Translations under genes and position numbers: made by a program
Notes under the pieces: generated by a model
Seen by the model: the letters and a program-made list of their open reading frames with translations, nothing else
Databases searched by the model: none
What the model was told of the DNA's origin: nothing
Shown: positions 11,899-26,988 of the stretch, piece after piece
How the letters are laid out: every line of letters begins with the position of its first letter
Numbering within the stretch: position 1 is the first letter of the stretch
From: an uncultured Candidatus Saccharibacteria bacterium
GTDB lineage: Bacteria > Patescibacteriota > Doudnabacteria > UBA920
DNA length: 64,000 nt
Assembly: GCA_964532425.1 (NCBI GenBank)
Contig: CAZHIA010000006.1
Coordinates: forward strand, 1,343 to 65,342
Reading direction: 5' to 3'

Positions 11899-11922
11899 AA
11901 GTTAGAGTTGGGGTACACCAGT

Positions 11923-12192
11923 ATGAATGTAAAAATAAAGCATAGTTTAATCGGATTAGGAGTAGGCCTAATTGCGGACGTCGTGCTGACTTTTTTATTC
12001 GTTGTACTCGTTGGGATTTTTTGGGAGAGCGGCAAGGATGTGGTCAAACCCACAACGCATGTTATAGATCAGGTAATCAATTATATAGCCCTTGCTATCA
12101 TTTTTGGTACTCCAGTAATTGGAACAGTGTGGGGATATCTTAACGGAGTAAAAGCTAACAGACCACCTGCACCGCCAAAACCGCAGCGGTAG
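11923..12192 (+). CDS. Small hypothetical membrane protein inserted between gatA and gatB
   Basis: About 89 aa with two hydrophobic helices (LIGLGVGLIADVVLTFLFVVLVGIFW; IALAIIFGTPVIGTVWGYL); start ATG 11923 in frame with track ORF 11908. Confidence 0.4.
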   Translation: MNVKIKHSLIGLGVGLIADVVLTFLFVVLVGIFWESGKDVVKPTTHVIDQVINYIALAIIFGTPVIGTVWGYLNGVKANRPPAPPKPQR

Positions 12193-12243
12193 ATAGTTTT
12201 TTAACACGCATTATTGCAAGGTTAATTAATAAACTCTTTAAGC

Positions 12244-13743: not shown

Positions 13744-13763
13744 AAGTGAATGATATCTTAAGA

Positions 13764-13808
13764 TACCCCGGGTGATCTCCGATGAACGGAGGCCTGGGGT
13801 GTTTTTAT
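13764..13808 (+). terminator. Intrinsic terminator after gatB
   Basis: ACCCCGGG...CCTGGGGT imperfect stem followed by GTTTTTATT. Confidence 0.45.
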
Positions 13809-13827
13809 TGTACGGAAACGTGTTTCG

Positions 13828-14061
13828 CTAAGTATGTATCTTATCCGGCGAATGCGGTGCTAATGCCTTCCTTCCGCTGCTGTATAAGGCCAGATCTTGT
13901 CGTAGCCTGCTTAGTCGCATCTTGATTCGCCGTAAGGCCTCCGCCACTTCGGTTGCCTCGCGAGCGGGGTGTTTTTTAAGCATCTGCATTTCCTCAATGA
14001 TCGCCTCGTATTCGGCTATAAAGTAATGCGGGTTCAATCCGCGTTTCCTATGGTTATGCAT
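13828..14061 (-). CDS. Hypothetical small protein
   Basis: ORF-track ORF 13828-14160, 110 aa; alternative internal start at 14061 with overlapping AGGAGG; helical, no motif. Confidence 0.3.
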   Translation of the reverse strand: MHNHRKRGLNPHYFIAEYEAIIEEMQMLKKHPAREATEVAEALRRIKMRLSRLRQDLALYSSGRKALAPHSPDKIHT

Positions 14062-14158
14062 GATCCTCCTGTACGAATGTTGGGATACAGTATACACGAC
14101 GGATGAAACCGTAATGATTAAAGCCGCGCAGGTACGTCTTATGCAAGTAAGGAGACTC

Positions 14159-15334
14159 ATGCCTATGGCAGAAAAGAATACCAGTTTACCAAAGGGTTTT
14201 TTGTTCGGAACTTCCTCTGCCGCCCATCAGGTTGAAGGTGAAAACATTTCGAGTGATTGGTGGCACTATGAAAGGATTGGCCGTCTTCCAAAATCCGGGA
14301 AATGTGCAGATCATTTTCACCGATTCCGTGAAGATTTCTCCCTGGCAGCCGGGTGCGGTATGGATGTCATGCGTATTTCCATTGAATGGAGCAGGATCGA
14401 GCCGGAAGCAGGGAGGTGGGACAGCTCCGCAATAGAACACTACCGGTCCGTCCTGGTTGCTATGAGGGCAATGGGATTGCTGCGCATCGTTACGCTGTTT
14501 CATTTTACTCTGCCACTTTGGTTTTATCGCCAGGGAGGTTTTTCGCGCAAAGCCAACATTGCATACTTTTCGAGATTCGCGAAGTTTATCGCGCATGAAC
14601 TGGGTGATGAGGTGGATATGTGGGTGACCGTGAACGAACCCGAGGTATATGCAGCAGCCGGTTTTCTCCAGGGTAGTCGGCCGCCGTTTGTGCGCAATCC
14701 ATTGCATTTTTGGTCTGTCTATCGCAATTTGCTAGACACGCACCGGGCTGCCTATGCTGCAATCAAAGAGGGTGGCAGTAATACACCGGTTGGGGTGGCT
14801 GTCAGTGCCGCATATTTTACCTCTTCACGGCGTAGTTTATCAGCCATGGCAGCTGCAGCAGGTAGACAGTGGATTTCCGGAATTGCTCGCACCTGCGATT
14901 TTATCGGTTTGAATTATTATTTTGCATATAACCTCGCATTCTCTTTGAGGCGGGGAATTCGGATCGTGAACCGGGATCAACCGTTTTCGGACATGGGATA
15001 CCGGGCCTATCCCGAAGGTCTGCTGCGAGTCCTCAGAGATTTTTCGCGCTTTGGGAAGCCGTTGTATATTACAGAGAATGGTATTGCGAATGCTGCTGAA
15101 GATATGCGCGTGCGGTTCATTGTTGAGCATATAGAAGCTGCTCTGAGCGCGCGTGAACAGGGGGTTGATGTGAGAGGGTACTTGTATTGGTCGCTTACTG
15201 ATACCTACGAATGGCAGCAGGGATTTGATTTAAAATTTGGACTGGTGGAGATCGACTACAGCACCTTGGAGCGTAAACCGCGAGCGAGTTATTATGAATT
15301 GAAAAGATTGATAGGATCGAAGAATATACACTAA
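14159..15334 (+). CDS. Glycoside hydrolase family 1 (beta-glucosidase/beta-galactosidase-like)
   Basis: LPKGFLFGTSSAAHQVEGE N-terminal signature, acid/base TVNEP, nucleophile ITENG. Start at ATG 14159 with AGGAG RBS 5 nt upstream (ORF track 14060). Confidence 0.8.
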   Translation: MPMAEKNTSLPKGFLFGTSSAAHQVEGENISSDWWHYERIGRLPKSGKCADHFHRFREDFSLAAGCGMDVMRISIEWSRIEPEAGRWDSSAIEHYRSVLVAMRAMGLLRIVTLFHFTLPLWFYRQGGFSRKANIAYFSRFAKFIAHELGDEVDMWVTVNEPEVYAAAGFLQGSRPPFVRNPLHFWSVYRNLLDTHRAAYAAIKEGGSNTPVGVAVSAAYFTSSRRSLSAMAAAAGRQWISGIARTCDFIGLNYYFAYNLAFSLRRGIRIVNRDQPFSDMGYRAYPEGLLRVLRDFSRFGKPLYITENGIANAAEDMRVRFIVEHIEAALSAREQGVDVRGYLYWSLTDTYEWQQGFDLKFGLVEIDYSTLERKPRASYYELKRLIGSKNIH

Positions 15335-15338
15335 TACC

Positions 15339-15376
15339 AACGATGATCATTCGCGGGCGCGAATGATCATCGTTTT
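15339..15376 (+). terminator. Intrinsic terminator after GH1 gene
   Basis: Perfect 16-bp stem AACGATGATCATTCGCG-GGC-GCGAATGATCATCGTT followed by TTTG. Confidence 0.7.
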
Positions 15377-15410
15377 GAAGATTAATGGGGGTTTGGTGGT
15401 GTCGAGAAAT

Positions 15411-15451
15411 AAAACACCCGCTCGGCGTCAGTACGAAGAGCGGGTGGTTTT
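15411..15451 (-). terminator. Bidirectional terminator serving minus-strand gene 15468-15857
   Basis: AAAA-CACCCGCTC-loop-GAGCGGGTG-GTTTT. Confidence 0.6.
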
Positions 15452-15467
15452 GTGTAATCCCCAGCGG

Positions 15468-15857
15468 CTAGCGCGATGGTTTTTTTAGGTACATGGTCGG
15501 TTCGGGTGCGTGCTGGACCCAGCGCATGACTTTGCGGCAAAACTCAAAGTGCAGCGGGCACTTGGGGCTTTGCAGCGTTTGCTTGAAGAACGTTTGGTTC
15601 AGTGTCCAATCGTCGATGCCTGAGAGTCTCCGCATCTTGCGCTCGATGGGGCGTTTGGCGTCCTTGTACACTTCGGAAAACAGCACGTAGTGATCGAGGC
15701 CAATGCCTTCGAACATGAGACAGACATGGTCTATGACCAAGTCGCGGGCCGCGCCCTTGTGCTGCTTGAGCAGCGCTTTTCGCGTGTTAATCAGCCGGAG
15801 CTCTTGGTATGCGCTCCGGTACTGCTTGTCTTTCCGCATGCTTGCTTGCTTATCCAT
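15468..15857 (-). CDS. Hypothetical protein
   Basis: 129-aa ORF; basic, no motif recognised. Confidence 0.4.
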   Translation of the reverse strand: MDKQASMRKDKQYRSAYQELRLINTRKALLKQHKGAARDLVIDHVCLMFEGIGLDHYVLFSEVYKDAKRPIERKMRRLSGIDDWTLNQTFFKQTLQSPKCPLHFEFCRKVMRWVQHAPEPTMYLKKPSR

Positions 15858-15877
15858 TATCCAGTGATTCTCCTATT

Positions 15878-16165
15878 TCAGTAGGTGGCTTTCATAGCGC
15901 GCAATCCGCGCGCCGTGCGGACGATTTTTGATAACCGAACCACTTCTCCGAGTTCCGGCCGTTTCTGCTGGTGCCAGACCGGTTTTGTGATGGTGAATGT
16001 GATTTTTTCAGATTCATCCTCAGGCTGGCAGACGGCATACGCGTGTTTATTGGGCTTGCGCGGCTGGACGATTTCCAAGATCACGGCAATTACTGGCGGG
16101 CTGCTTCCTGGTAGCTGTCCCGTGGGGGGGTCCGACATTCTTCCTCCTATTGACTCTGCGGACAA
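15878..16165 (-). CDS. Hypothetical protein
   Basis: 95-aa ORF immediately upstream of and co-directional with 15468-15857. Confidence 0.3.
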   Translation of the reverse strand: MSAESIGGRMSDPPTGQLPGSSPPVIAVILEIVQPRKPNKHAYAVCQPEDESEKITFTITKPVWHQQKRPELGEVVRLSKIVRTARGLRAMKATY

Positions 16166-16272
16166 AGGTGTAGAGTATCACAATTTACTACGGATGTCCA
16201 TTGCTAAAATGTCGGAGCAAAGTAAAAACCGGCCAACCTAAGGTTGGCCGGTTCAATGTCCGACGAGGCGGA

Positions 16273-17052
16273 CTAGCGCTTTACAAACCTGCGGCTACAC
16301 AACGCGGCGCCGGCCAGTCCTAGACCGGTCAACGCCATTGTGGCCGGTTCAGGAACTTCGCCACCCTTCGGCGGCGGCATGATGATCATCGTGGCAGATG
16401 TGGACGGCCCAGCCGTGCTCCAGCCAGAAATGTCGGTGTAAGGACCCCAAGAGTATGCCCCTTTGGCGCGTCCTTGGTCGAAGATCTGGTCAGTGCGAAG
16501 GTTCATCGACATCCACCAGTTGTCGTAGTTACTAAAGCCACTCCGTGTCTGGGTGGTGGTGCCGGATCCCGGACAAGCACCATTCTCGATGCCGGTGCAG
16601 TCCCAGTTCGAGACAGTACTTGCGAGCAATATCTCTAGGGAGTTGCCCTTGCCACCGCTCATGTACAACTCGCCAGTGAGCGGGTAAAAGGTAAATCCGA
16701 AATAGTTGCTCAGGGTGTTTGTGAGTGTGGCCGTCTGATTATAGTTGGTCCCTGCAGCGCCACTGAGCAGATCGGTGTTATTCCAGAACGTCCTGGTGTC
16801 CTGCACCGAACTGCTGAAGCCGCCGCTTACCCACGGATTGCTGGGGTCGCCCGACAGATTACTCCATGTGTCGAGTGTGAGATCAATGTAGTGACCCTGA
16901 CCCTGACTGGTGCAAAGGGCCAATCCGGCGCCGAGAGGCGTGCATGAGCCGGAGCCTGTGCCTTCCGAGAGTAAATTTGTCGTTATCGGGGCTGCGGTCG
17001 CTGAAACGACGACGGCCAGCATGATCAGAATCGCACAGATCGTATTGCGCAT
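16273..17052 (-). CDS. Secreted protein with C-terminal PEP-CTERM sorting signal
   Basis: N-terminal signal peptide MRNTICAILIMLAVVVSATAAP; C-terminus EVPEPATMALTGLGLAGAALCSRRFVKR (PEP motif, hydrophobic helix, basic tail); Gly/Ser/Thr/Asn-rich body. Confidence 0.7.
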   Translation of the reverse strand: MRNTICAILIMLAVVVSATAAPITTNLLSEGTGSGSCTPLGAGLALCTSQGQGHYIDLTLDTWSNLSGDPSNPWVSGGFSSSVQDTRTFWNNTDLLSGAAGTNYNQTATLTNTLSNYFGFTFYPLTGELYMSGGKGNSLEILLASTVSNWDCTGIENGACPGSGTTTQTRSGFSNYDNWWMSMNLRTDQIFDQGRAKGAYSWGPYTDISGWSTAGPSTSATMIIMPPPKGGEVPEPATMALTGLGLAGAALCSRRFVKR

Positions 17053-17100
17053 CTAAAATCCTCCTTGGGGACTGTTTTGATGTGCTGCCTGGTTGTGACG

Positions 17101-17243
17101 TGCTGCAATGAGCTTATAAAAGGCCTCATTGCAGCAGAACGTTTGAGTATGCGTCACCAGGTACGGTGACCGGATAATATAGCATAATTACGCGAAATTG
17201 TCAAGACCTCTACTTTGACAATTACTCGGGAGTTTTATACACT
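17101..17243 (+). promoter_or_regulatory. Divergent control region: three palindromes plus candidate sigma70 promoter of island gene A
   Basis: 12-bp perfect IR TGCTGCAATGAG/CTCATTGCAGCA (17101-17136); palindrome GTCACCAGGTACGGTGAC (17153-17170); AATTGTCAA-N10-TTGACAATT (17196-17223) overlapping -35 TTGACA 17215-17220, 17-nt spacer, -10 TACACT 17238-17243. Confidence 0.45.
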
Positions 17244-17287
17244 AGTACGATTGTTTGTTTTCAAACGAGAAATACAAAGGAGGGGAT

Positions 17288-18169
17288 ATGAACATTCCCG
17301 CAATTATCAAAGCGGTGGAAGCGGATGATTTTTCCTTTATGGAAGGCATCCGTTTAGGAAAGAAGGCTTATACACTCACTGTGGAAGGGCTGAAAAAGTC
17401 AGTGAAGGATGGGACATTCCCCAAAATTCACGGATACGCGGCGCTTGCCCGAGTGACCGTGAGTAATGATGCGCATGTGACCCATCTTGCCCATCATGGA
17501 CTCATCGACAAATCCGGCGAAAAGGGTGTTTGGGTTTTTCTGCCAGCTTTGTTTGTCGGACTCAAAGCCGAGCAATCGGACAATGGGCAGCCTTCGGCAG
17601 GAAATCATTCGCAAGACGCCAAATCCAAACAGATCTTCTACGCGGTTAAGTCCCGCGCAGTCGAAAACATGGTGGTCTTCACCAAGGATTTGCGACAGCA
17701 GGTGGCGGACGAAGTCGGCTGTCGAGCCAGTTACGTGGGGCAGGTCATGCTCGGCGCGGAGGAGCGCGGTTTGGTCAGGCTCCAGGATCGCAAGATGCGC
17801 GGTTTTGGCTACCAGATCGTTTTTCTGGAAGAAGCCCAGCCGCCTGCGGCCGATCCGCGTATCGTGGATACGGATCAGGAAGAGCCTGGAGAAGTTCCGG
17901 TGCCGGAAGATCCCCCGAACAATCAACCTCAACCGGCCCAGGCTGCGGCTTCTGTCGGTGATGCGCCCGCGGATGTTTCCGCGCAATCGATCATCCGACT
18001 GTATGATGACGAGATCGCCGAATGCGACCGGCAGATCGAAGCGGAAACCGCGCGGATGAAACATGCTCTGGAAACCCTGCAGGCCAAGAAGGATGGCCTT
18101 TCGCGGATGCGCGACGAGGTCCGGCATAAGGCCGAGCAGGTCCGCGAGTCCATCGTGAATAAGCAGTAA
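17288..18169 (+). CDS. Hypothetical protein with winged-helix-like segment and C-terminal coiled coil (island gene A)
   Basis: RBS AAGGAGGGG then ATG 17288; segment KDLRQQVADEVGCRASYVGQVMLGAEERGLVRL resembles an HTH; acidic Pro-rich linker; C-terminal heptad-rich tail. Confidence 0.55.
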   Translation: MNIPAIIKAVEADDFSFMEGIRLGKKAYTLTVEGLKKSVKDGTFPKIHGYAALARVTVSNDAHVTHLAHHGLIDKSGEKGVWVFLPALFVGLKAEQSDNGQPSAGNHSQDAKSKQIFYAVKSRAVENMVVFTKDLRQQVADEVGCRASYVGQVMLGAEERGLVRLQDRKMRGFGYQIVFLEEAQPPAADPRIVDTDQEEPGEVPVPEDPPNNQPQPAQAAASVGDAPADVSAQSIIRLYDDEIAECDRQIEAETARMKHALETLQAKKDGLSRMRDEVRHKAEQVRESIVNKQ

Positions 18170-18176
18170 GCCACAA

Positions 18177-18208
18177 GCCCGAAGCTAAAAGCTTCGGGCC
18201 TCTTTTTT
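18177..18208 (+). terminator. Intrinsic terminator after island gene A
   Basis: GCCCGAAGC-TAAAA-GCTTCGGGC followed by CTCTTTTTT. Confidence 0.7.
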
Positions 18209-18212
18209 ACTC

Positions 18213-18241
18213 TTGATAATTAACAGCTTATAGCCTATGAT
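18213..18241 (+). promoter_or_regulatory. Candidate sigma70 promoter of island gene B
   Basis: TTGATA (18213-18218), 17-nt spacer, TATGAT (18236-18241). Confidence 0.5.
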
Positions 18242-18266
18242 AGGAGGAAATCTTCCAGGAGGAATT

Positions 18267-19481
18267 ATGCGAGAATCGCAGGGGAAAGCCGTAGCGAGGG
18301 CGTACTTTTACCAGAGTTTTCTGCCTTCGTGCCTGACCGCTTCGCAGCTGCAACACGGCAATTTTCTCCTGCTCTTGGGAGAACAACCGCGCGAGCTGCC
18401 GTATCTGCAGGAACTGCGCGTGCCGATGAATCAGATCTGGTCGGTGGAAAACCAGCACGCGATATTCTTGAAGCAGCTTCAATTCCGTGAACAGGGGCAT
18501 TTGCCGATCTCTCTCTACTACGGGGACATGGCTGAGTATGTGCAGTACCTTCTCCACGAAAATAAAGAGTTCCTAGTTCTCGGCTTGGATGTTGAAGGCA
18601 GTTTCTTAAACCAGCTTGATCCGGCCATGACTTCGGTCATGCTCTTCTGCTGGAGGGCTCCGCAGTCCGTGGTGGCCACCTATTCCAGCGTGGGTCGTGA
18701 CCGCTTCATGGTTTGGGAAGGGTTGAAATCCCTGGCGCTGTTTCTGGCCATTGCGCCAAAACAGACAGCCGAATTTTTGGCGGTCTTAAGCCTGCGGTAC
18801 GAGCGGGCTGGCTTCACCGAGCCGGTGAGTATGGTCTTAAGAGACTTGTTTTGGATCAGAAGCCACTTGGAGCATACGCTTATGGCTTCCGTCGTGGTTG
18901 GTGCCGTACCGGGCAGCTTTTACCGTGAGTGCGCGCAATTACAGGAGAGTCTGTGGCAAGCGGTGAAGAAACAGCGCCGCTTTCCGCTGTCCATGGGTTT
19001 TCTCCAGGCGTGCGTCAAATCATGGCTGAAAGATAATCGTATCGCATTCGGCAACCACTTTAACAAAAACCGCAGCTTAGGGCTCTCTTGGGATACGCTG
19101 GCCCACGTGGTATACAATGCCGAGCATCCCTGGTCGCAGCTTTGCTACTTTGCCAAGTTCCGTAATGACGGCAATTTGATCTCCTGCAAGGTATGGCTGC
19201 TCCAAGTGCTCGAATTGTTTATGCGTCAGCCGCTTCTCTACATTGCCCGTTCCGGCAAAACCTACGAGCTGGACGGTCGCGTGCGCGACCTCTCGGAGCT
19301 GGCATCAGTAGCCTTGCTGAAAGGCAATAATCGAACCGATCGCAAAGGCGACCGGGAGATATACCGGCTGTTCAAACCGCGCCAGCTGGAAGCACGAACG
19401 TTGGTGCCGCATGTGCGCGGCATCACGCAGACCATTCTTGCTATTCGCAAGAGCAACGGGTATCATGGCAATAGCATGTAG
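18267..19481 (+). CDS. Hypothetical protein (island gene B)
   Basis: About 404 aa from ATG 18267 preceded by CAGGAGGAAT RBS (track ORF starts 18237); no recognised domain. Confidence 0.5.
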   Translation: MRESQGKAVARAYFYQSFLPSCLTASQLQHGNFLLLLGEQPRELPYLQELRVPMNQIWSVENQHAIFLKQLQFREQGHLPISLYYGDMAEYVQYLLHENKEFLVLGLDVEGSFLNQLDPAMTSVMLFCWRAPQSVVATYSSVGRDRFMVWEGLKSLALFLAIAPKQTAEFLAVLSLRYERAGFTEPVSMVLRDLFWIRSHLEHTLMASVVVGAVPGSFYRECAQLQESLWQAVKKQRRFPLSMGFLQACVKSWLKDNRIAFGNHFNKNRSLGLSWDTLAHVVYNAEHPWSQLCYFAKFRNDGNLISCKVWLLQVLELFMRQPLLYIARSGKTYELDGRVRDLSELASVALLKGNNRTDRKGDREIYRLFKPRQLEARTLVPHVRGITQTILAIRKSNGYHGNSM

Positions 19482-19509
19482 TGCGCCAACACCAGGAGGC
19501 AACAATATC

Positions 19510-19752
19510 ATGGCTCATACCAAACTACGCAAGAACCATGCAGATAATGCTCCAGTTGCACCGAAAGGGACTCCGTACCTGGACGGTACCGGGAACCTGA
19601 CGCAGTGGGGTAAAAAGCGAATCAAGTTTGTCGGCGCGAAATGCGTCAACGTCAACCAGCTCATAGCCAAACTGCCGCCGTACGTGGCAGAACTGGTAGA
19701 CCGCCAGACGCTGATCGCCTTGCTGGCCATCTCGCACCGGCCGTCATCGTAA
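19510..19752 (+). CDS. Small hypothetical protein (island gene C)
   Basis: 80 aa from ATG 19510 with AGGAGG RBS 10 nt upstream; MAHTKLRKNHADNAPVAPKGTPYLDGTGNLTQWGKKRIKFVGAKCVNV. Confidence 0.4.
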   Translation: MAHTKLRKNHADNAPVAPKGTPYLDGTGNLTQWGKKRIKFVGAKCVNVNQLIAKLPPYVAELVDRQTLIALLAISHRPSS

Positions 19753-19799
19753 GTGGCTGTCACAGCCATTCTTAGCTCACCTTCGGGTGGGCTTTTTTT
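19752..19799 (+). terminator. Tandem hairpins plus T7 tract after gene C
   Basis: TGGCTGTCACAGCCA and AGCTCACCTTCGGGTGGGCT followed by TTTTTTT. Confidence 0.55.
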
Positions 19800-19800
19800 C

Positions 19801-19867
19801 TTGACAATTGCCCGCTGATTTATTATGATTTACCGATATCTTATAAGGCATTTCGCTGTCATAAGAT
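19801..19867 (+). promoter_or_regulatory. Near-consensus sigma70 promoter plus operator-like palindrome for the gene D-E pair
   Basis: TTGACA (19801-19806), 17-nt spacer, TATGAT (19824-19829); downstream IR ATCTTAT-N16-ATAAGAT (19838-19867) before RBS GAAGGAGGGG. Confidence 0.6.
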
Positions 19868-19897
19868 AGGCATCTTAACAGTTTAGAAGGAGGGGAA

Positions 19898-21100
19898 ATG
19901 ACTGACTTACCCAAAAAACGGTCAGCGGCGCTGGAGGCTTCCCGCCTGCTCAATCAATTGACCGACACCGCAATAAAATTCGCTTGTGAGCAAGGAGCTC
20001 GCAAAAATTCGACCATGGAAATTGGGACTGTGCTGGCTCAGCATCTCAACGAACGGGAGAAAATCCAGGTGCGGCCCCATACGCTTGTCGAATTGCTCGA
20101 AGGCGCAAGGTTCCGGGGAGGGTCAAGTTTCATTATCCCATTTGGGAAAATGCTTGGCTGCCAGGACATTGCTGCCCGGCTGAGCGCGCTCTCGGAGCTG
20201 CTCGGTGACAGAATGGCAGGCGTCGCCACGTTCGGCGAAACGGAGATTGATTTTTTATTCGATCTTCTGGATGAGCGGCAGAAGCTTTCTTCGCAGATGG
20301 ACACCGCGGCGTTTGCCGGGTATTTTCATCCCTACCAACAAACCGTTGTCAACCTGTGCAATTATTCCAGGAGCGCCCTGACAAAGATGGGCGAGCATGG
20401 TTCAGAAGCGCGGCATATACGGAAGGTAATGGAAGAAAAACCATGGGACAAGGGCCAGCAACCGGATGCGCTGAATCAACCGAATGCGGCAGATCCGGAG
20501 TTGGTAGAACTACTGAATGACCTGCAAGGCAAAATGGGCAGGACTCAACTCAGTGCTGCGCTTGGAATCCACCGGGAAACCCTGGTCGCCCGCCTGGAAG
20601 GGAAGCGGGGAACCAAGATTAGCGACGAAGAGCTTATGAGAAAAGTCAAGGCTGTCTCAGCTGGGCTTGAAGGTGGTGAGAGACCGTCGCCGGCAGCAAC
20701 GCCGGTCCCGGTTTTCAGAACCCGCCAGGAAGACGTACAGGCACGAGTCGTTTTGCCTGCGGAAATTTCCGCAGCGAACGACAGTGGTCCCCGGTTCGTC
20801 CTTACCCCGCAAAATTTCCAGGAGCACCAGCGGAATCTGTGCATTGAATTCATCGGGCTTGCCAAGCGCCAGATGGAACTGGCGCGGCGCGCGCTCGACG
20901 AAGTTACCCAGCACCAGGATCCGGCCGTGCGCGCGTACATCCGCAGTCAAATGATGGGCGAGGTGCATGAAATGCATTTTGCCTTAGAACGTTTCAGCGC
21001 CGAACACCCGAACATTCTGCTCGAAACGCTCGAGGCGGAGCGCCAAGGATTCGAGTTGCATCGCAAACAGCAGGAACCAGCAGGAACCAGGAGAAAATAA
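19898..21100 (+). CDS. Hypothetical protein with internal helix-turn-helix (island gene D), translationally coupled to the GHKL gene
   Basis: 400 aa; strong RBS; HTH-like segment MGRTQLSAALGIHRETLVARLEG; stop TAA overlaps next ATG (TAATG); 10-bp tandem duplication CAGGAACCAG at 3' end. Confidence 0.6.
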   Translation: MTDLPKKRSAALEASRLLNQLTDTAIKFACEQGARKNSTMEIGTVLAQHLNEREKIQVRPHTLVELLEGARFRGGSSFIIPFGKMLGCQDIAARLSALSELLGDRMAGVATFGETEIDFLFDLLDERQKLSSQMDTAAFAGYFHPYQQTVVNLCNYSRSALTKMGEHGSEARHIRKVMEEKPWDKGQQPDALNQPNAADPELVELLNDLQGKMGRTQLSAALGIHRETLVARLEGKRGTKISDEELMRKVKAVSAGLEGGERPSPAATPVPVFRTRQEDVQARVVLPAEISAANDSGPRFVLTPQNFQEHQRNLCIEFIGLAKRQMELARRALDEVTQHQDPAVRAYIRSQMMGEVHEMHFALERFSAEHPNILLETLEAERQGFELHRKQQEPAGTRRK

Positions 21101-23151
21101 TGAAAAAGGTATTGAAAGTGATGAAAAGCGCGGCAGAGTACGTGACCATCAAGTGCGGACGCGGTTTTTTGAGCCGTCAGTTCGCTGGCACTACGTATTT
21201 GGCCGCTGCCACGGAATTGATCAAGAATCCCCGCGACTGGGGCGCAACCGCCATTTGGATCTGGGACAATATCCGTCCCAATCTGGTGCGGTTTGCGGAT
21301 AATGGCGTAGGAATGAACCCGGAAAACCAAACCGCGTTCTGCTCACTCAACGTTACCACGGCGACCAAGGTTTGGCAGGCTGGTCTCTACGATACGGGCA
21401 GCAAGAAGTTCCTGTTCGGTTTCTCCGAACGGGTCGATGTGCGCACCGTGTTCCAGGACGATCCGGATTACGTGAGCCAGTTCGCGCTAGTGACGGCGGA
21501 TTACGAAAACCAGGTCATGGGAAGCGCTCCGAATCAGATCCCGGTCACTCGCGTTCTAAAGACGCCGGAGACCTGGCCGTTCGATTTCCCGACCGGTACC
21601 GTCCTCGACTATACGTTGCGGGATCCCAAAAGCCGCGCCATTTTGCGCGGCAAGTCCCTGGCCGAAGCCATGAGCGCCCGATATCCGGATAAGTTCAAGG
21701 ACATTATCCAGATCAACGGCACGTTCATTCCAGGCAAGGGCGAGAACGCTAAGCTGTTCCATGTTGTGGAACAGCATCCGCAACTGGGACAGGTCTCCAT
21801 CGAGATCTACCAGGTTGCCAAAAAGCGGATTCGCGAAGAGATGCTCTTGCTGTCTGCCGGCGAGATTGGCGAAGTTCCGTTCTCGTCGTTCCTTTCCGGG
21901 CTCGGCGAACTGCAAGCTGACATCGATGACGTCTACGGCCTCGCTACCACAGCCGGCGTGATCCAGGTCCCGTATCTGAAGGAGTATATTAACGAGGACC
22001 GCAAGTCGCTCAACCCGCGCTTCATTGATGACAAGCGTACAATGCAGCTGTTGTTTCTGCTCAAGCGCTTTGCTCCGATCATTGAAAGCCGCTTGGGACT
22101 CCATCTCAAGCAGGATGAAGAACAGGCCGGCGGCCACCGCGTGGTCGACGAACTGATCACGCGGTGCAACAAGAAGTACAATCCCAAAGGCGACATTCCG
22201 CGGGATTTCCGCAAGCCTGATGATGTCGTACCTCCTCCTCCCGTCCGAGGCCCTGAAGAGGACGATGTCTTTGGCGGCACGGATGAGGACGAGCGCAAGG
22301 AAGGGGTGAAGATCGGCTGCCAGCGCGAGTATGAGGTTGGTGAACCGATCCAAATCCGTTTAGCGGTCTCCAAGAACCTGACGTTAGATCCGGCTAAGCT
22401 GAAGTGGCAAACGGACCATTCCCTGGCTAAGGATATTCGCAGTACCGACAAGGGGCTGGAAATGGTGGCAGCTCGCGAGGGCTACGCCAGGGTCAGCTTG
22501 GATGTGGTAGGCACGCCGTACAGCGCCAACTGCCACTATGTCGTGGTAGGGAAACGCAAGTTCAAACTGAGCTCGTCGCAGTCGGTTCTCAAAGTCGGCC
22601 AGTTCTTGAACATCATGACCATCAACTCTGACAAGCTGAAAGGCGAAGTTAAGTGGGAGATGGCCAAGGACAGCGTCGGCAAGCTGGAAGCTAATGGCAA
22701 GCGAGCCGTCTACTTTGCGACCCGCTGGGGCAAAGCCACGGTCTGGGCGTATGACAGCCTGAACCCAAAGGGTACCCGGGTGGCATGCGAGATCGACGTC
22801 ATCCGTCCTGATGACGAATATCTGACCATTCGGAATCACCATTTCCGCGTTCGGTTCACCGTGACCGAACAGGGAATGATGTACGAGCGCAAGCCGGTGG
22901 TCATTAAAGGGAGCTCGGCGGGGAAGGTGCATGACATCTTCTTCAATACCAAGCACCCGGCCTATGTGAAGGCCGATCAAACCGGTTCCTTGCAGGAATT
23001 TCTGCTCATGGAATTGGCGATCGAGTATGTCAGGTTCTGCAAGTTCGATCTGGAGCAGATCCATGTCGAAATGGCGAGCTTTGACGTCCCGGAAGCGTTC
23101 AGTGCAATCCAGAAGGAGGCTGATGTAATTTATCTCGAATTGAAAGAGTAA
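21100..23151 (+). CDS. GHKL/Bergerat-fold ATPase (MORC/Hsp90/MutL-like motifs) fused to two Big_2-like Ig domains (island gene E)
   Basis: 683 aa; N-box ELIKNPRDWGAT, G1 box FADNGVGMNPE, G2-like GLYDTGSKKFLFGF; two repeats of about 80 aa each matching the Big_2 pattern, ending ...GKATVWAYDSLNPKGTRVACEIDVI; no signal peptide. Confidence 0.65.
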   Translation: MKKVLKVMKSAAEYVTIKCGRGFLSRQFAGTTYLAAATELIKNPRDWGATAIWIWDNIRPNLVRFADNGVGMNPENQTAFCSLNVTTATKVWQAGLYDTGSKKFLFGFSERVDVRTVFQDDPDYVSQFALVTADYENQVMGSAPNQIPVTRVLKTPETWPFDFPTGTVLDYTLRDPKSRAILRGKSLAEAMSARYPDKFKDIIQINGTFIPGKGENAKLFHVVEQHPQLGQVSIEIYQVAKKRIREEMLLLSAGEIGEVPFSSFLSGLGELQADIDDVYGLATTAGVIQVPYLKEYINEDRKSLNPRFIDDKRTMQLLFLLKRFAPIIESRLGLHLKQDEEQAGGHRVVDELITRCNKKYNPKGDIPRDFRKPDDVVPPPPVRGPEEDDVFGGTDEDERKEGVKIGCQREYEVGEPIQIRLAVSKNLTLDPAKLKWQTDHSLAKDIRSTDKGLEMVAAREGYARVSLDVVGTPYSANCHYVVVGKRKFKLSSSQSVLKVGQFLNIMTINSDKLKGEVKWEMAKDSVGKLEANGKRAVYFATRWGKATVWAYDSLNPKGTRVACEIDVIRPDDEYLTIRNHHFRVRFTVTEQGMMYERKPVVIKGSSAGKVHDIFFNTKHPAYVKADQTGSLQEFLLMELAIEYVRFCKFDLEQIHVEMASFDVPEAFSAIQKEADVIYLELKE

Positions 23152-23163
23152 GTCGCAGTATGC

Positions 23164-23197
23164 CGCCTGGCTCCGCAAACGGAGCCAGGCGTTTTTT
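23164..23197 (+). terminator. Intrinsic terminator after gene E
   Basis: CGCCTGGCTCCG-CAAA-CGGAGCCAGGCG followed by TTTTTT. Confidence 0.75.
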
Positions 23198-23280
23198 ATT
23201 TTAGTGAGCTTACTGGCCGAATATCATGTTGATTGTAATTGCGGATTTTTTCCTATTCGGCAACAGACCTTAAACGCAAT

Positions 23281-23317
23281 AAAAAAGCCGCCCGCACAGA
23301 AAACGTGCGGGCGGCTG
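23281..23317 (-). terminator. Intrinsic terminator of convergent gene F (minus strand)
   Basis: AAAAAA-GCCGCCCGCAC-AGAAAA-CGTGCGGGCGGC; T-run on minus strand. Confidence 0.7.
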
Positions 23318-23322
23318 AATGA

Positions 23323-25170
23323 TTATACCTGAGCAGAAGCCTGACGGACCTTCCAACGCTGCTCCGTGAGCACGCGTTTTGATTCGTATGCCCTGCGGAT
23401 ATTGTCGATGGTCAGATCATGCTTGACCATGAGGTTGTACGCGTGCTGGAATTGGCCGGAGGTGAGCTTGATGGTGTTTCTTCTGGCTGACCGTTGATTG
23501 ACATCGTAGATCAGCCAGGTTTTTGTACTGAGTTCCCACCGCTTCTTGATCACCGGCGCCTTTTCGCCTTTGAGGTTCTCGGACTGCGTCGGGTCAGCCA
23601 CCATAGTTCGTAATACGGGAGCGAACGTACCGGCTTCATCCTTCGAACACTTTTTCAGGAGCTGTACCGTTTCGAGCAGCGAGTTGACACTGCTGCTGGC
23701 AATGAACTTGTCATTGCACGTGATGACGTATCCCGCACAGATGATCAGCTCGTAGAGTTCTTGCGCCCGTGCCTCGTCATACGACTCAGGAACGGGCAGG
23801 GGAATTTCGCTGCTTTCGTCCTCCAAATCCGCAAGCGGCGGTTGTGCTGATTGCGGACCGGAAGGCTCGGCAGCAAGAGGTGGCGTGAGCGGTTCCGGTT
23901 CCCGGAAGGTTTCAGATTCTCCGGGTTCCGATTGCGGTGCTGGTTCGGCCGGTTCGTGGGTCGGTTCGGGCTGGGGTTCTGCTTCCAAAATTTCTGGCAG
24001 CATTCCCAAATAGCGTTCCGTTGCCTGCACGACATCCGCCACATGCTCGGTCAATTGAGGTGGCGTGTAGAATAAGCGTTCGATGCTCGCGACGAGCAGT
24101 TCCAGTTCGTTGCCCAGGCGCTGGGGGCGCCAGTCTTCCGAAGCTGCGACAAGTTCGGCAAATTCATACTCATTCGTATCGATGTACTTGCCGGGCAGGA
24201 ACAGGTGAGGCGGCTTTAACACGCCGTTCTTGGCAAATTGCTGGTACCAGTCGAAGGTGCCGATCTGGGTGTGCCAATGCACCATAACCTGCTTCAGAAC
24301 GGTTGCATGCTGGTCGAGATCGTCGCGGATGTCGGTTTGGCTTTGGGTAAACAGCTGCTGAGCGTCTTTCTGCGCTTGCGCGATGGCACCCAAATGCCGC
24401 CGTGCCTCTTCCACTTGCTGTTTGAATCCCGGATCGGGCGGTGCGCCACCCAGTACGCAATACAACTCCTCGAGGAAACAGTTGTCTTTGAGTTTGAGGA
24501 ATTGGATGGCGTCGGCTACGCATTGGTTTTCCATGGTCAACATGGATTCCCAGTTCGCTTTAGCCGCTTCCGCGCGCTCTTTAAGCTCGGTGAGCTGCTG
24601 GCGCAGGGAAACGATCTCGTCGTGGGTAATGGCGATCCACTTGGCACAGTCGGCCCATGGTTTATAGATGACCAGCGCGATGCTGTCGGAATTCTCCAGC
24701 GCCTGCGTGGCGTTGTCATAGGCTACGGTCATGCCAGATGCGACTTGGTCGGTTTTGCAGAGCTTGTCGGCAATGGTGCTGATGCCACTCATGAAGCTGT
24801 ACAGTTTTTCCTTTAGCAAGGAAATTGCTTCCAGCTCATCGCTGTTCGCGATGGCCTGCAGGACCTGCTGAAGATTCAGAATGCCCATGAGCTCGGCTTT
24901 GACTAACTGGCCCGCTTCTCCGCACGTGTCGAGGATACCGTTGCACTGCTGCTCAAAATCATACAGCAGGTCAGTGAGTCCGTGAGTATCCATCGGGCGT
25001 TCGAAAAAGGTTTCTTGCCCGTTCACCCGCATGTATTTAAAGCTTTGTCCGCGGGCCGCTACGCGCTGAAACAACTGGAGCGTGCCGCGATCTAGGCGGC
25101 TGGCATCTACCTGCACATAATCGTACCCCTTCCCGTCGGGCGTGGGATACCTCAGGTAATAATTTTCCAT
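23323..25170 (-). CDS. Large hypothetical protein with acidic Pro/Glu-rich linker (island gene F)
   Basis: 615 aa; strong RBS AGGAGGGGG; low-complexity segment EPQPEPTHEPAEPAPQSEPGESETFREPEPLTPPLAAEP; no recognised domain. Confidence 0.55.
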   Translation of the reverse strand: MENYYLRYPTPDGKGYDYVQVDASRLDRGTLQLFQRVAARGQSFKYMRVNGQETFFERPMDTHGLTDLLYDFEQQCNGILDTCGEAGQLVKAELMGILNLQQVLQAIANSDELEAISLLKEKLYSFMSGISTIADKLCKTDQVASGMTVAYDNATQALENSDSIALVIYKPWADCAKWIAITHDEIVSLRQQLTELKERAEAAKANWESMLTMENQCVADAIQFLKLKDNCFLEELYCVLGGAPPDPGFKQQVEEARRHLGAIAQAQKDAQQLFTQSQTDIRDDLDQHATVLKQVMVHWHTQIGTFDWYQQFAKNGVLKPPHLFLPGKYIDTNEYEFAELVAASEDWRPQRLGNELELLVASIERLFYTPPQLTEHVADVVQATERYLGMLPEILEAEPQPEPTHEPAEPAPQSEPGESETFREPEPLTPPLAAEPSGPQSAQPPLADLEDESSEIPLPVPESYDEARAQELYELIICAGYVITCNDKFIASSSVNSLLETVQLLKKCSKDEAGTFAPVLRTMVADPTQSENLKGEKAPVIKKRWELSTKTWLIYDVNQRSARRNTIKLTSGQFQHAYNLMVKHDLTIDNIRRAYESKRVLTEQRWKVRQASAQV

Positions 25171-25214
25171 ACCCCCTCCTGTAAAGTTGTATAAGTGCCT
25201 CAGTTAAAATCTCT

Positions 25215-25269
25215 ATTCCCTAGAGCGGGAATATCAATAGACTATATGAGATTTTTGGCTGTTTGTCAA
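25215..25269 (-). promoter_or_regulatory. Candidate sigma70 promoter plus operator-like palindrome for gene F
   Basis: On minus strand TTGACA (25264-25269), 17-nt spacer, TATAGT (25241-25246); palindrome ATTCCC-TAGAGC-GGGAAT (25215-25232) in the 5' UTR; -35 overlaps miaA stop codon. Confidence 0.5.
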
Positions 25270-26298: not shown

Positions 26299-26988
26299 AT
26301 GCAAATTGCCTCGCTGGAAATTATTGAGACTCTGCACGACCAGGTGGTGCATGCATTATCGCTTGCCCGTACATTCCATTGCATAGTAGAGTTCCATGCT
26401 TTTGCAGCTGCTGATGGAAGCCTGGTGATTCCTTCCATAGTCAAGCCCCAGTCGCATGCGGCCTTGCAGACCCTTCAGGATCTGGTCGGGGAGCGGGAGC
26501 GGCTCGAAGCAGTATGCGGCAAGCGGCTCGTGAATCTGGTGCTGCACTTCCATACGCATCGCGGCGATGTCCGGCCTTCCTTGGGCGACTTTCTGTCCGG
26601 AGTGAATGTAAGCATGTTGCTGCATCAGTATGGGCCTGAACTTGGATTCGGCGAATCTTTCATTCCGCCGCGCTTTTGTATCGCCAACCAGCAAGGGCAG
26701 CTGTGTAACTACCATTTTACCCAGAGGGTGAAAGAGTTGCAACAGGTCAGGGAGCTTGTCCAGCAGCGCATGGAACGCCTGGCCGAGGAAGCCGGCTTGT
26801 CCAGTTTGCTGAGTGCGGAAGCGAACGATCTTTTTGAGGAAGACTTCCTGAGGAACCAACAGTGGTATATGCAGCATGCGAAGTATACATCCTGGATGCG
26901 CTGGCATTGGAATGTCGGAGTTTCGGTCTTAAGCTTCGGGTATGCGCTGTTACCGTTCAGTTTGCTCGGAGAAGCTATCGTGCTGTGA
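26299..26988 (+). CDS. Hypothetical protein
   Basis: 229 aa; RBS AGGAGGG 5 nt upstream; C-terminal hydrophobic helix; no motif. Confidence 0.45.
   Translation: MQIASLEIIETLHDQVVHALSLARTFHCIVEFHAFAAADGSLVIPSIVKPQSHAALQTLQDLVGERERLEAVCGKRLVNLVLHFHTHRGDVRPSLGDFLSGVNVSMLLHQYGPELGFGESFIPPRFCIANQQGQLCNYHFTQRVKELQQVRELVQQRMERLAEEAGLSSLLSAEANDLFEEDFLRNQQWYMQHAKYTSWMRWHWNVGVSVLSFGYALLPFSLLGEAIVL

Follow-up and report, generated by a model that had tools for sequence, protein, structure and literature searches.

An accessory gene cassette between gatB and miaA of a Patescibacteria genome encodes a predicted MORC/SMCHD1-like GHKL ATPase

Background

Why do six genes stand between a PEP-CTERM gene and miaA in this genome, and what might they do? 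The host is a Patescibacteria (CPR) bacterium, kin of Ca. Doudnabacteria. A first-pass annotation of the window, which is the whole stretch of 64,000 nucleotides that was analysed, had described the six genes A to F as an ORFan island with its own regulatory signals, and F as convergent. All six reading frames were recovered in that arrangement, and an independent gene call on an identical Logan contig yields the same six genes. They span positions 17288-25170 and are organised in four units (Table 1). Their products are cytoplasmic, with no membrane segments.

Table 1 Features of the locus, with positions counted from the first letter of the window
Feature	Position	Strand	Remarks
PEP-CTERM gene	16273-17052	-	left neighbour of the six-gene block
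Inverted repeat, perfect, 12 nt	17101-17136		TGCTGCAATGAG-N12-CTCATTGCAGCA, in leader of divergent PEP-CTERM gene
Back-to-back divergent promoters, PEP-CTERM/A	17176-17243
Promoter of PEP-CTERM gene	17204->17176	-	TTGACA-17-TATATT, with TG
Promoter of A	17215-17243	+	TTGACA-17-TACACT
Gene A	17288-18169	+	293 aa; strong SD (AAGGAGG)
Terminator of A, intrinsic	18177-18199	+
Promoter of B-C unit	18213-18241	+	TTGATA-17-TATGAT
Gene B	18267-19481	+	404 aa, basic (pI 9.4)
Gene C	19510-19752	+	80 aa, pI 10.2, own AGGAGG
Terminator of B-C unit, intrinsic	19774-19793	+
Promoter of D-E unit	19801-19829	+	TTGACA-17-TATGAT
Inverted repeat, D-E leader	19837-19868	+	TATCTTAT-N16-ATAAGATA
Gene D	19898-21100	+	400 aa; HTH protein
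Gene E	21100-23151	+	683 aa; MORC/SMCHD1-like GHKL ATPase (predicted)
Terminator of D-E unit, intrinsic	23164-23191	+
Terminator of F, intrinsic	23286-23316	-
Gene F	23323-25170	-	615 aa; convergent with D-E
Promoter of F	25241-25269	-	TTGACA-17-TATAGT; -35 box overlaps miaA 3' end
miaA	25266-26258	-	right neighbour of the six-gene block

Insertion site and composition

In at least 14 Patescibacteria (CPR) relatives, gatB and miaA are convergent, with no gene between them. The spacer in genome L005 is 289 bp long, and in the window the gap is 11.5 kb. This difference points to insertion in a variable hot spot. The synteny comparison that had been suggested therefore identifies the block as accessory DNA: positions 17053-25265 are an accessory, lineage-restricted cassette that splits the ancestral convergent pair gatB|miaA. 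Across relatives, the gatB/miaA flanks hold differing cargo, namely GH1, a PEP-CTERM gene, five unrelated genes, or nothing. In the left portion of the spacer this cargo differs genome by genome.

The island has a GC content of 54.2%, against 49.4% in the remainder of the window. Windows of 8.2 kb elsewhere have a mean of 49.2 +/- 0.84% and none exceeds 50.9%, which places the island about 5.9 SD above them. Its tetranucleotide distance of 0.203 is roughly twice that of other windows (0.100 +/- 0.011, maximum 0.128). Both GC and tetranucleotide usage thus deviate strongly. Together with the interrupted synteny, and with presence/absence polymorphism in close relatives, this gives the locus all three marks of a genomic island. 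The opposite outcome, a gene order conserved in all relatives and no compositional deviation, had been named as evidence against an island, and is contradicted by the synteny break and by both composition measures.

Deviant composition need not mean recent arrival. Two other genomes, L002 and L094, have a cassette at the same site, and because the GC offset is present there as well, recent transfer is not required. In all three hosts the GC3 of the cassette exceeds that of housekeeping genes, and it has drifted host by host. The enrichment could stem from expression level or codon preference, and not from foreign origin.

Expression signals

The promoter scan, for sigma-70 sites, covered 13.7-27.3 kb. 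Its five best matches (10-11/12) lie directly upstream of the PEP, A, B, D and F units, correctly oriented and with near-consensus boxes. Canonical promoters are found elsewhere in the window too (29 matches). The five best terminator hairpins fall one after each unit, at the ends of PEP, A, C, E and F. An AGGAGG or GGAGG core precedes A, B, C, D and F; scored against the anti-SD, A, B, D and F reach -10 to -13 kcal/mol, and E -7.4. Among the 55 other ORFs just 5 score -8 or better (Fisher p = 2.4e-4; 3.7e-3 with alternative starts), and most other genes in the window have no SD. The first-pass annotation was therefore right about the canonical promoters, the strong ribosome binding sites, the single terminator per unit and the mostly weak or absent SDs of housekeeping genes. 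The extended -10 leaderless starts that it gave to the latter are not general, as a -10-like hexamer precedes the start codon by 6-15 nt in only about 5 of 55. L002 keeps the layout of promoters, SDs and terminators, as does L094 for most units.

Operator-like palindromes had also been reported. Palindromes are present at 17101-17136, 17191-17228 and 19837-19868, but the one containing TTGACAATT, at 17191-17228, is made up simply of two -35 boxes, one from each of the divergent promoters of PEP and A (AATTGTCAA-N10-TTGACAATT). The inverted repeat at 17101-17136 may act as an operator or form a hairpin in RNA. TTGACAATT is found 5 times where 0.82 would be expected; it is the -35 box, is used as well by the PEP-CTERM gene, which lies outside the conserved cassette, and is not conserved in L002 or L094. 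The motif said to be common to the divergent region next to A and the D-E promoter does exist: TTGACAATTnCnCG, a longer sequence picked after viewing three sites, has exactly 3 matches, at the PEP, A and D promoters. It was from such sharing that A had been put forward as a possible regulator of the island.

The GHKL protein E

A full HMMER scan finds 371 relatives of E, of which 101 are at E <= 1e-30. The family forms about 100 clusters, and appears to be confined to CPR bacteria. The term ORFan is therefore apt as far as curated libraries go, but not beyond them, given these relatives and the 35 homologues that make up the B family.

Domain spans in E are approximate, and were taken from the secondary structure of a predicted model. 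In order, these are a GHKL domain (20-210), a transducer (215-300), a helical hairpin (306-360), a disordered linker (361-400), two Ig-like domains of Big_2 type (401-570), and a beta plus helical C-terminal domain (575-683). The Ig region is basic by pI.

Residues E39, N43, D46, D67, G69, G71, G100 and R301 are invariant or nearly so across 93 family members. Motif I, ExxxNxxD, is present as E39-L-I-K-N43-P-R-D46, where E39, N43 and D46 are kept in at least 90% of the 93. Motif II, DxGxG, reads D67-N-G69-V-G71-M, with G69 invariant. The lid, Q93-A-G95...G100-S-K102, aligns to the MORC2 lid motif. E has the Bergerat fold of the GHKL superfamily; this fold and the intact catalytic motifs can be counted as established, along with the gene content, the synteny break, the patchy distribution and the D-E-F-B linkage.

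The best sequence and fold matches of E are MORC proteins, with MORC2/3 and SMCHD1 the closest. Some 290-300 residues align with the GHKL+S5 modules of MORC3 and MORC2, and the nearly invariant R301 in the transducer corresponds to the basic finger of MORC. The S5 domain of MORC has a specific motif, GhXhhpXXRhl (PMC2292703). The E family consensus at 230-239, G-x-V-x-x-E-L-Y-R-P, resembles it in sequence. The fifth position is F or I in the four closest members, and in the E of the window the stretch is GQVSIEIYQV, where Q replaces R.

An Arg at the position equivalent to R301 is found in Hsp90 as well. E might then be a protein-remodelling chaperone like Hsp90/HtpG, with D and F as co-chaperones or clients in a proteostasis module that has no DNA role, and its Ig-like domains would fit, as such domains often make protein-protein contacts. 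We consider this highly improbable. The profile E-value for MORC2 (3e-12) is about five orders of magnitude better than that for HtpG (2.6e-7), there is no match to the Hsp90 C-terminal dimerisation domain, D homologues have HTH domains, several partner domains are strongly basic, and patchy distribution is atypical of chaperones.

The partner genes

The N-terminal part of D is variable, with HTH-like segments. A homologue from locus L085 matches the XRE-type HTH_31, and the window's D has a weak HTH_30 match at residues 215-234. The C-terminal domain of about 110 aa is conserved, and is likely the part that binds E. D stands directly upstream of E in all the examined loci with room for it; its stop overlaps the start of E (ATGA), and the two are translationally coupled.

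F begins with 400 acidic, mostly helical amino acids; a linker rich in Pro and Glu connects these to a C-terminal domain that is basic (pI 9.4) and conserved. No known homologue of F was found, nor a relative of known fold for B. The B family does have an enzyme-like set of invariant residues (K7, E43, E61, D108, G111, D145, E151, R192, W196, R198 and E202), and B is the candidate for the enzymatic component of the cassette. C matches the C-terminal domain of B-family proteins, which elsewhere are mostly single chains of 440-540 aa. Here C is separated from B by a +1 frame change, and a relative with 87% identity has the same split.

In A, the N-terminal half is basic (pI 8.6), and a linker rich in Pro and Gln leads to a coiled coil at the C terminus. 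A has no Pfam or PDB match, and the winged helix it had been credited with is unsupported by any database searched. Its homologues are limited to L002 and L094, which have the cassette in the same position between gatB and miaA; A may be a clade-specific DNA-binding regulator or adaptor.

Distribution and divergence

The same A-B-D-E-F order adjoins miaA in L002 and L094, which with the genome of the window make three hosts that range in GC from about 36% to 50%. Since they share one site, much of the pattern is accounted for by vertical descent and loss. The cassette is missing from L005, L006, L008 and L010, even though L005 is the sister of L002 by MiaA (70%).

Between the window and L002, identity is 83% for GatB and 60% for MiaA in the flanks, against 25% for A, 22% for D, 26% for F, 36% for E and 40% for B. 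L002 and L094 are the closest pair by MiaA (76%) and yet show the lowest identity in E (31%) and B (35%), a test of incongruence that is near saturation at 30-40% identity. The cassette proteins diverge fast, and out of step with GatB/MiaA distances.

D is found just upstream of full-length E in all 12 loci examined. A relative of F adjoins E in 11 of these, and B is present in 5. B is also encoded beside an E fragment in L087 and, in L095, next to a GHKL protein that is shorter and only distantly related. The core D-E(-F) recurs widely across CPR, among housekeeping genes that are unrelated from locus to locus, and the accessory genes around it vary between loci. What stands of the first reading is that the block is accessory, patchy and compositionally deviant; a recent or unique acquisition does not stand, given an ordered cassette at one site in three genomes.

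Could the block have been carried in by, or be left over from, a mobile element that integrated here (prophage, ICE or plasmid), for example as an addiction or exclusion module? The insertion relative to ancestral gatB|miaA, the deviant composition, the self-contained promoters and terminators, and the other cargo carried per genome in the left spacer portion all suggest this. Yet there is no tRNA, integrase, transposase or flanking direct repeat at the island, an absence that had been noted before. A-F have nothing significant in Pfam, NCBIfam, PHROGs or PADLOC, and no match in PADLOC-DB v2 at E <= 0.01. Neither 50,697 phage records, queried by tblastn with E, B and F, nor 72,556 plasmids, queried with E, gave any match; a scan of IMG/VR gave as its sole match a GHKL domain from a giant virus, at 26% identity. 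The cassette is also stable at one site in three diverged genomes. A mobile-element origin is therefore quite unlikely, and the earlier label of defence, addiction or integrated-element cargo lacks known families, mobile hallmarks, and phage or plasmid homologues to back it.

Another possibility, rather unlikely in our estimate, is a lineage-specific 'chromatin' module. Here E, D and F would compact or organise the nucleoid or silence host loci, with no defence role, and would descend vertically within CPR, often being lost or rearranged. The nearest kin of E are the chromatin ATPases MORC2/3 and SMCHD1, several components look DNA-binding, and the genes are always among housekeeping genes, without mobile-element or defence neighbours. 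Position and order are equal in three genomes, and GC follows the host. This is hard to square with sister genomes that differ in presence (L005 and L002), a site in a variable hot spot, a variable accessory composition, and proteins that diverge very fast relative to GatB/MiaA, with incongruent distances. In addition, about 100 E clusters look small against CPR diversity, going by the number of catalogued species.

Proposed function

The reading that we prefer, and to which we give about an even chance, is that the cassette is a novel GHKL-based, DNA-directed module for conflict, defence or silencing. Its core would be the operon of the HTH protein D and the MORC/SMCHD1-like E with its two Ig-like domains. 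F would be a separately transcribed, convergent partner, B (with C) a frequent accessory, and A a putative regulator specific to this clade. DNA would be bound by D, and probably also by the basic C-terminal domains of F and B/C. E would then be recruited through the conserved C-terminal domain of D. On binding ATP it may dimerise via its GHKL heads, like MORC, MutL and Hsp90, and the dimer would clamp or compact the bound DNA. B and/or F would act as effectors, and overall the system would restrict or silence foreign DNA. Its own promoters and SD-led translation would let the cassette be controlled apart from SD-less housekeeping genes.

That DNA is the target is suggested by the HTH matches in D homologues, and by the basic pI of B, C, the Ig region of E and the C-terminal domain of F. 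Against a clamp, Ig-like domains are atypical of one. Against defence, the module is flanked by ordinary housekeeping genes and by neither defence islands nor mobile elements, and no nuclease, methylase, helicase, TIR or other recognisable effector is found in the 12 E loci. Ten diverse E-family members gave only weak GHKL-domain matches in PADLOC, to MzaB (6.8e-5) and TmtA.

More tentatively, and with some doubt, D-E-F(-B) might be an unrecognised class of DNA-directed immune or silencing system, confined to the ultra-small CPR bacteria: a MORC/SMCHD1-like clamp loaded by an HTH protein, with B/F effectors and allele-like exchange at gatB-miaA. If so, prokaryotes would have in it a counterpart to the MORC silencing of eukaryotes, equipped with an Ig-domain sensor, B and F would be two wholly new families of effector proteins, and divergent 'alleles' of the system would be swapped at a fixed hot spot.

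Comparison with known systems

Prokaryotic MORC and paraMORC GHKL ATPases belong to restriction-type conflict systems (Iyer, Abhiman & Aravind 2008, PMC2292703), a precedent for reading the cassette as a conflict system. Like E, they have a GHKL + S5-type transducer module with intact ATP-binding motifs, and like the cassette they occur in multi-gene operons with a sporadic distribution. Family-specific C-terminal extensions, such as E has, are typical of paraMORC. Their partners are an SFII helicase, a restriction-fold/HNH nuclease and a DNA methylase, all absent from 12 of 12 E loci; the partners of E are instead D (HTH), F and B, none with a known relative. The extension of E also differs, in being two Ig-like domains plus a helical domain, and its family is apparently CPR-restricted.

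Eukaryotic MORC2, MORC3 and SMCHD1 have an architecture in common with E, which in those proteins forms an ATP-driven dimerising head. Identity to E is only 14-16%. E does not have the CW zinc finger, the SMC hinge or the long coiled coil of eukaryotic type, and is paired with a separately encoded HTH partner. MutL was considered and set aside: E has no C-terminal endonuclease/dimerisation domain, PDB sequence and fold matches cover the N-terminal module only, there is no MutS partner, and sequence similarity is weaker than to MORC. Hsp90/HtpG was likewise rejected, with a fold-level match to N+M only, no C-terminal domain and no Pfam HSP90 match.

In core-genome defence hot spots, as reported for instance in Pseudomonas (PMC10250203), variable cargo sits between conserved housekeeping flanks. 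The gatB-miaA site is similar, with conserved flanks, varying cargo and no integrase. It differs in that its cargo is only putatively defensive, and in that one cassette persists in three diverged genomes instead of being swapped for unrelated systems. As for E, judged by its sequence it is a previously undescribed relative of the MORC/MutL DNA-clamping ATPases.

An accessory insertion between gatB and miaA

The island at 17053-25265 is a real accessory insertion, and the first-pass annotation was largely right in observing it. Its six genes, A to F, lie between the PEP-CTERM gene and miaA. An independent gene call on the identical public contig (Logan SRR11567520) gives the same six genes as the ORF listing.

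Genes of the island and its surroundings (positions in the window)
Feature	Position	Strand	Length	Remark
gatA + gatB	10399-13743			upstream of island
PEP-CTERM gene	16273-17052	-		left border of island
A	17288-18169	+	293 aa	ORF listing and independent gene call
B	18267-19481	+	404 aa	ORF listing and independent gene call
C	19510-19752	+	80 aa	ORF listing and independent gene call
D	19898-21100	+	400 aa	ORF listing and independent gene call
E	21100-23151	+	683 aa	ORF listing and independent gene call
F	23323-25170	- (convergent)	615 aa	ORF listing and independent gene call
miaA	25266-26258	-		right border of island

None of A-F has a significant match in Pfam, NCBIfam, PHROGs or PADLOC. A sub-threshold match to HATPase_c_3 is seen for E alone, at its N-terminus. 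Membrane segments are predicted in none of the six. B and C are basic, as are the Ig region of E and the C-terminal domain of F. As had been noted from the sequence, no tRNA is found in the window and no integrase was seen; Rfam matches are absent across the whole window as well.

The best matches of MiaA in a scan of GTDB species genomes are Candidatus Doudnabacteria MAGs, at 60% identity, followed by other Patescibacteria; the window is therefore CPR DNA. In at least 14 CPR relatives gatB is convergent with miaA and directly beside it, according to tblastn of window proteins against the related loci (L005, L009, L010, L011, L014, L015, L016, L020, L021, L022, L026, L027, L039 and L051). At none of these 14 loci does tblastn find A-F encoded. 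This is the synteny comparison that had been proposed as a check, and it supports insertion into a variable hot spot.

The spacer between gatB and miaA varies widely in length, from 289 bp in L005 and 562 bp in L010 to 2.3 kb in L006, 5.8 kb in L008 and 11.5 kb in the window. Its cargo differs per relative, which suggests that the spacer is a hot spot for recombination or insertion. Next to the island the window has a GH1 glycosidase gene, two small ORFs and the PEP-CTERM gene (13744-17052). There are five unrelated genes in L002 (L002:1645-6155), three small ORFs in L006 (L006:2258-4552), and six ORFs in L008 (L008:10973-16805), including a GH1 orthologue of 46% identity. Directly after the stop of the GH1 gene in the window (15334) there is a perfect 17-nt inverted repeat, AACGATGATCATTCGCG / CGCGAATGATCATCGTT, at 15339-15374, with a 2-nt loop and no obvious T tract.

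The cassette in three genomes

The ordered cassette is common to three genomes at one site. In L002 (GCA_034680565.1) the order is gatA-gatB, the five unrelated genes, A, B with C fused to it, D, E, a convergent F, miaA and a cupredoxin gene. In L094, an 811 kb contig of the same assembly, it is gatC-gatA-gatB, a 52-aa ORF, A-B-D-E-F, miaA, cupredoxin and L25. This assembly has more than 36,000 contigs and behaves like a metagenome, or like a host assembly with symbionts. It holds two distinct CPR genomes (locus GC 43%, flank GC 36%), each with the cassette at gatB|miaA.

By MiaA, L002 is nearest to L005 (70%), a genome without the cassette at gatB|miaA; the window's MiaA is 61-63% identical to both. 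The cassette was therefore lost or gained within the clade.

The cassette proteins are far more diverged than their neighbours. Between the window and L002, GatB is 83% and MiaA 60% identical, against 25% for A, 40% for B, 22% for D, 36% for E and 26% for F. As a pair, L002 and L094 have the most similar MiaA (76%) and the least similar E (31%) and B (35%), and window and L094 stand at 60%, 34% and 43% for MiaA, E and B. Such incongruence suggests that divergent alleles may have been exchanged at a fixed site, or that very fast divergence has become saturated. A neighbour-joining tree of the E family is too star-like to separate these two readings or to show whether window E and L002 E are sisters.

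Composition

The compositional deviation that was to be checked is present. GC of the island is 54.2%, versus 49.4% in the remainder of the window and 49.2 +/- 0.84% (maximum 50.9%) in 158 non-overlapping control windows of equal length. The tetranucleotide L1 distance from the remainder is 0.203, versus 0.100 +/- 0.011 (maximum 0.128) for the controls.

Cassette GC also lies above that of the flanks in L002 (45.1 versus 42.7%) and L094 (41.7 versus 36.0%). The offset is mostly at third codon positions, with GC3 of cassette versus comparison genes at 0.665 versus 0.614 in the window, 0.459 versus 0.400 in L002 and 0.417 versus 0.312 in L094. The GC of the cassette has thus drifted along with each host, with the offset retained, which argues against a recent one-off acquisition. 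Recent horizontal transfer as the sole cause of the GC excess is rejected, since such an offset is found in all three hosts, which differ in GC. The island is not a mobile element that landed recently.

Promoters, terminators and ribosome sites

The island had also been credited with a regulatory grammar of its own. In terms of numbers there is no excess between 13.7 and 27.3 kb: a consensus scan finds 14 promoter-like sites versus 10 +/- 3 in shuffles, and there are 19 terminator-like sites versus 15.6 +/- 4.7. What stands is the placement. The top five promoter matches (10-11 of 12 positions, 17-nt spacers) stand shortly before PEP-CTERM, A, B, D and F, one per unit and in the correct orientation, and the top five hairpin terminators also fall one per unit, at the ends of PEP-CTERM, A, C, E and F. 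The whole window has 29 promoter matches of equal quality, so canonical promoters are not exclusive to the island; all five island ones are correctly placed. A promoter of the TTGACA-N17-TATAAT type precedes most cassette units in L002 and L094 too.

The word TTGACAATT is over-represented (5 observed versus 0.82 expected), and its post hoc extension TTGACAATTnCnCG has exact matches at the PEP-CTERM, A and D promoters. These matches coincide with the -35 boxes themselves. TTGACAATT is rejected as an island-specific operator because it represents -35 boxes, drives the PEP-CTERM gene, which is outside the conserved cassette, and lacks conservation in L002 and L094. Among the proposed operator palindromes, 17101-17136 and 19837-19868 are true inverted repeats with a putative regulatory role; 17191-17228 is simply two divergent -35 boxes.

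The difference in ribosome sites is confirmed. An AGGAGG or GGAGG core is found at the proper distance before A, B, C, D and F, the start of C being read from the sequence, and the anti-Shine-Dalgarno (anti-SD) scores of A, B, D and F are -10 to -13 kcal/mol. The start of E overlaps the stop codon of D (ATGA), and its site is weaker, at -7.4. Of the 55 other ORFs just 5 score -8 or better when the first start codon is used (Fisher p 2.4e-4, or 3.7e-3 once alternative starts are permitted for them), with housekeeping starts taken from the longest ORFs. The same dichotomy is seen in L002. The extended -10 leaderless starts ascribed to housekeeping genes are weakly supported: a -10-like hexamer occurs 6-15 nt before the start in about 5 of 55.

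It seems that this genome has two gene classes, SD-led and SD-less, and that non-housekeeping genes are enriched in the former. The clear split between SD-led accessory and SD-less housekeeping genes, which is kept in a relative, matters for CPR gene calling and for translation initiation. The enrichment is also true of the variable genes of L002. Outside the cassette, a strong AGGAGG with a canonical promoter nearby is found at the PEP-CTERM gene, at 54042-54746 (+) and at 26299-26988 (+), which encodes an unknown 229-aa protein divergent from miaA.

Many SD-less housekeeping genes have short degenerate tandem repeats of 8-10 nt abutting their start codons, for example TTTGTCAATTTTGTCAATTATGTCAATT, CCTATAAGCTGACTGCTATAAGCT, ACATTTGACATGTAACCT and TTGGAAATT/AATTTCCAA. 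They precede the starts at 36411, 37049, 43711, 10399, 55966, 5591(-), 35445, 49298, 39105, 44637, 48733, 30022 and 55183. Like repeats lie upstream of gatB in two relatives (L002:96-135 and L094:6907-7036). In this CPR lineage they may serve as an uncommon type of promoter or of translation-initiation signal.

E and its partners

E looks like an active ATPase of the GHKL plus transducer kind, MORC/SMCHD1 type, judging by motifs, profile and fold. In a 93-sequence alignment the near-invariant residues are E39, N43 and D46 (motif I), D67, G69 and G71 (motif II), G100 (lid) and R301. The best profile matches are MORC2 (3e-12), MORC3 and MORC4, then MutL (8e-8) and HtpG (2.6e-7). A chaperone role is the least probable of the three alternatives for the module. 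The AlphaFold2 model from the same 93 sequences has pLDDT 90 and pTM 0.80; it replaces an earlier, unusable model from 4 sequences (pLDDT 56). Its top Foldseek match is a MORC2-DNA complex, and fold matches in BFVD are generic GHKL only (RIIA, topo II, giant-virus proteins).

In the model the ATPase module of E is followed by a helical hairpin and a disordered linker, then by two Ig-like domains and, at the C-terminus, a beta/helical domain. The profile search matches residues 415-550 to an Ig-repeat surface protein of a phage tail. In the E-family search output, five giant proteins of 1300-3350 aa (P0117, P0132, P0139, P0142, P0150) carry 5-14 tandem copies of the Ig-like unit, corresponding to E residues of about 408-597. 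E, a cytoplasmic ATPase, thus has its Ig module in common with probable surface proteins.

D has a variable N-terminal region, for which homologues match XRE-type HTH_31 and a wHTH and the window's D weakly matches HTH_30, and a conserved C-terminal domain of about 110 aa. The B family has 35 homologues of 33-87% identity with about 20 invariant residues, and B is without a Pfam or PDB relative. In most genomes B and C are a single protein of 440-540 aa. In the window they are split by a +1 frame change (region 19411-19752), and C retains its own AGGAGG. The 87%-identical relative P0158 (405 aa) is split likewise and ends at the identical place; the split is thus probably genuine, a gene fission and not a sequencing error.

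In F, an acidic helical N-terminal region is joined by a Pro/Glu-rich linker to a C-terminal domain that is basic and conserved; F is without a known relative. A combines a coiled coil with two segments of putative DNA-binding type, without database support. PDB profile searches of A, B, D and F returned spurious helical-bundle matches only, and for the homologues of F and B Pfam gave only sub-threshold HTH-type matches, in a few B members.

The module elsewhere

Contrary to the first-pass annotation, these genes are no ORFan set: B has its homologues, the cassette is in three genomes, and HMMER, run in full on 1.84 billion cluster representatives with the E profile, finds 371 proteins of the E family at E <= 1e-3, 101 of them at E <= 1e-30. 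Roughly 90 relatives of E are full-length (650-700 aa). A word-index protein search badly understates the family, with three relatives of 31-36% identity; for F it gives no match other than F itself.

The contexts of twelve full-length E genes were scored with one profile each for A, B, D, E and F. D is immediately upstream of E in all twelve, mostly overlapping its start, and a convergent F relative is downstream in 11. B is present in five (window, L002, L094, L085, L098), and the short contig L087 has B upstream of D and a fragmentary E. A is confined to the three gatB-miaA genomes. The island is one instance of a module restricted to CPR bacteria, whose core D-E(-F) is conserved and in which B and A are optional. 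One E-family member is annotated as Ca. Uhrbacteria.

A variant is found on an ENA contig (L095:9173-14101). It has a divergent wHTH gene of the TrmB type, then a B homologue and two small ORFs of 155 and 165 aa, then a distant, shorter GHKL ATPase (531 aa) that matches only 28-378, the N-terminal part of the E profile. B is thereby tied to GHKL ATPases outside the E family proper. The genes after this module are split ribonucleotide reductase genes.

The flanks of the E loci vary and are all ordinary housekeeping genes: ftsB and a Mur ligase, trigger factor and H+-PPase, S1 and glycosyltransferases, PNPase and signal peptidase II, CysRS, ThrRS. No integrase, transposase or phage genes were seen in the E-gene contexts. 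Neither phage records (tblastn with E, B and F) nor plasmid records (tblastn with E) gave a match, and IMG/VR searched with a 4-sequence E alignment yielded just one giant-virus GHKL domain (26% identity). That the module is the remnant of a mobile element ranks second of the three alternatives.

Possible function and known systems

The genomes of CPR bacteria, or Patescibacteria, are tiny (about 1 Mb) and contain few defence systems that can be recognised; the hosts are mostly uncultured. For such bacteria, 6-8 kb given over to a conserved module of unknown proteins is a large investment.

All functional statements on the module are drawn from sequence, fold and context. Most likely it encodes an HTH-guided, ATP-driven DNA clamp or compaction complex, in which B and/or F would be effectors and the target would be foreign DNA. 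If it serves defence or silencing, a GHKL-clamp mechanism with new partner families would join the known ones, and MORC/SMCHD1-type ATPases would gain a bacterial model. The likeliest of the three alternatives is a role in host chromatin; as a nucleoid organiser the module would bear on DNA packaging in these episymbionts.

Literature searches on MORC or GHKL in Patescibacteria/CPR did not turn up the E family. Among described systems the prokaryotic MORC/paraMORC ATPases come closest; they belong to restriction-type conflict systems (PMC2292703). E has their fold and ATPase motifs, but none of their partners (helicase, nuclease, methylase) is beside it, and its match to the MORC-specific S5 motif is ambiguous. 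E is therefore called MORC-type-clamp-like, and not a member of the MORC family proper.
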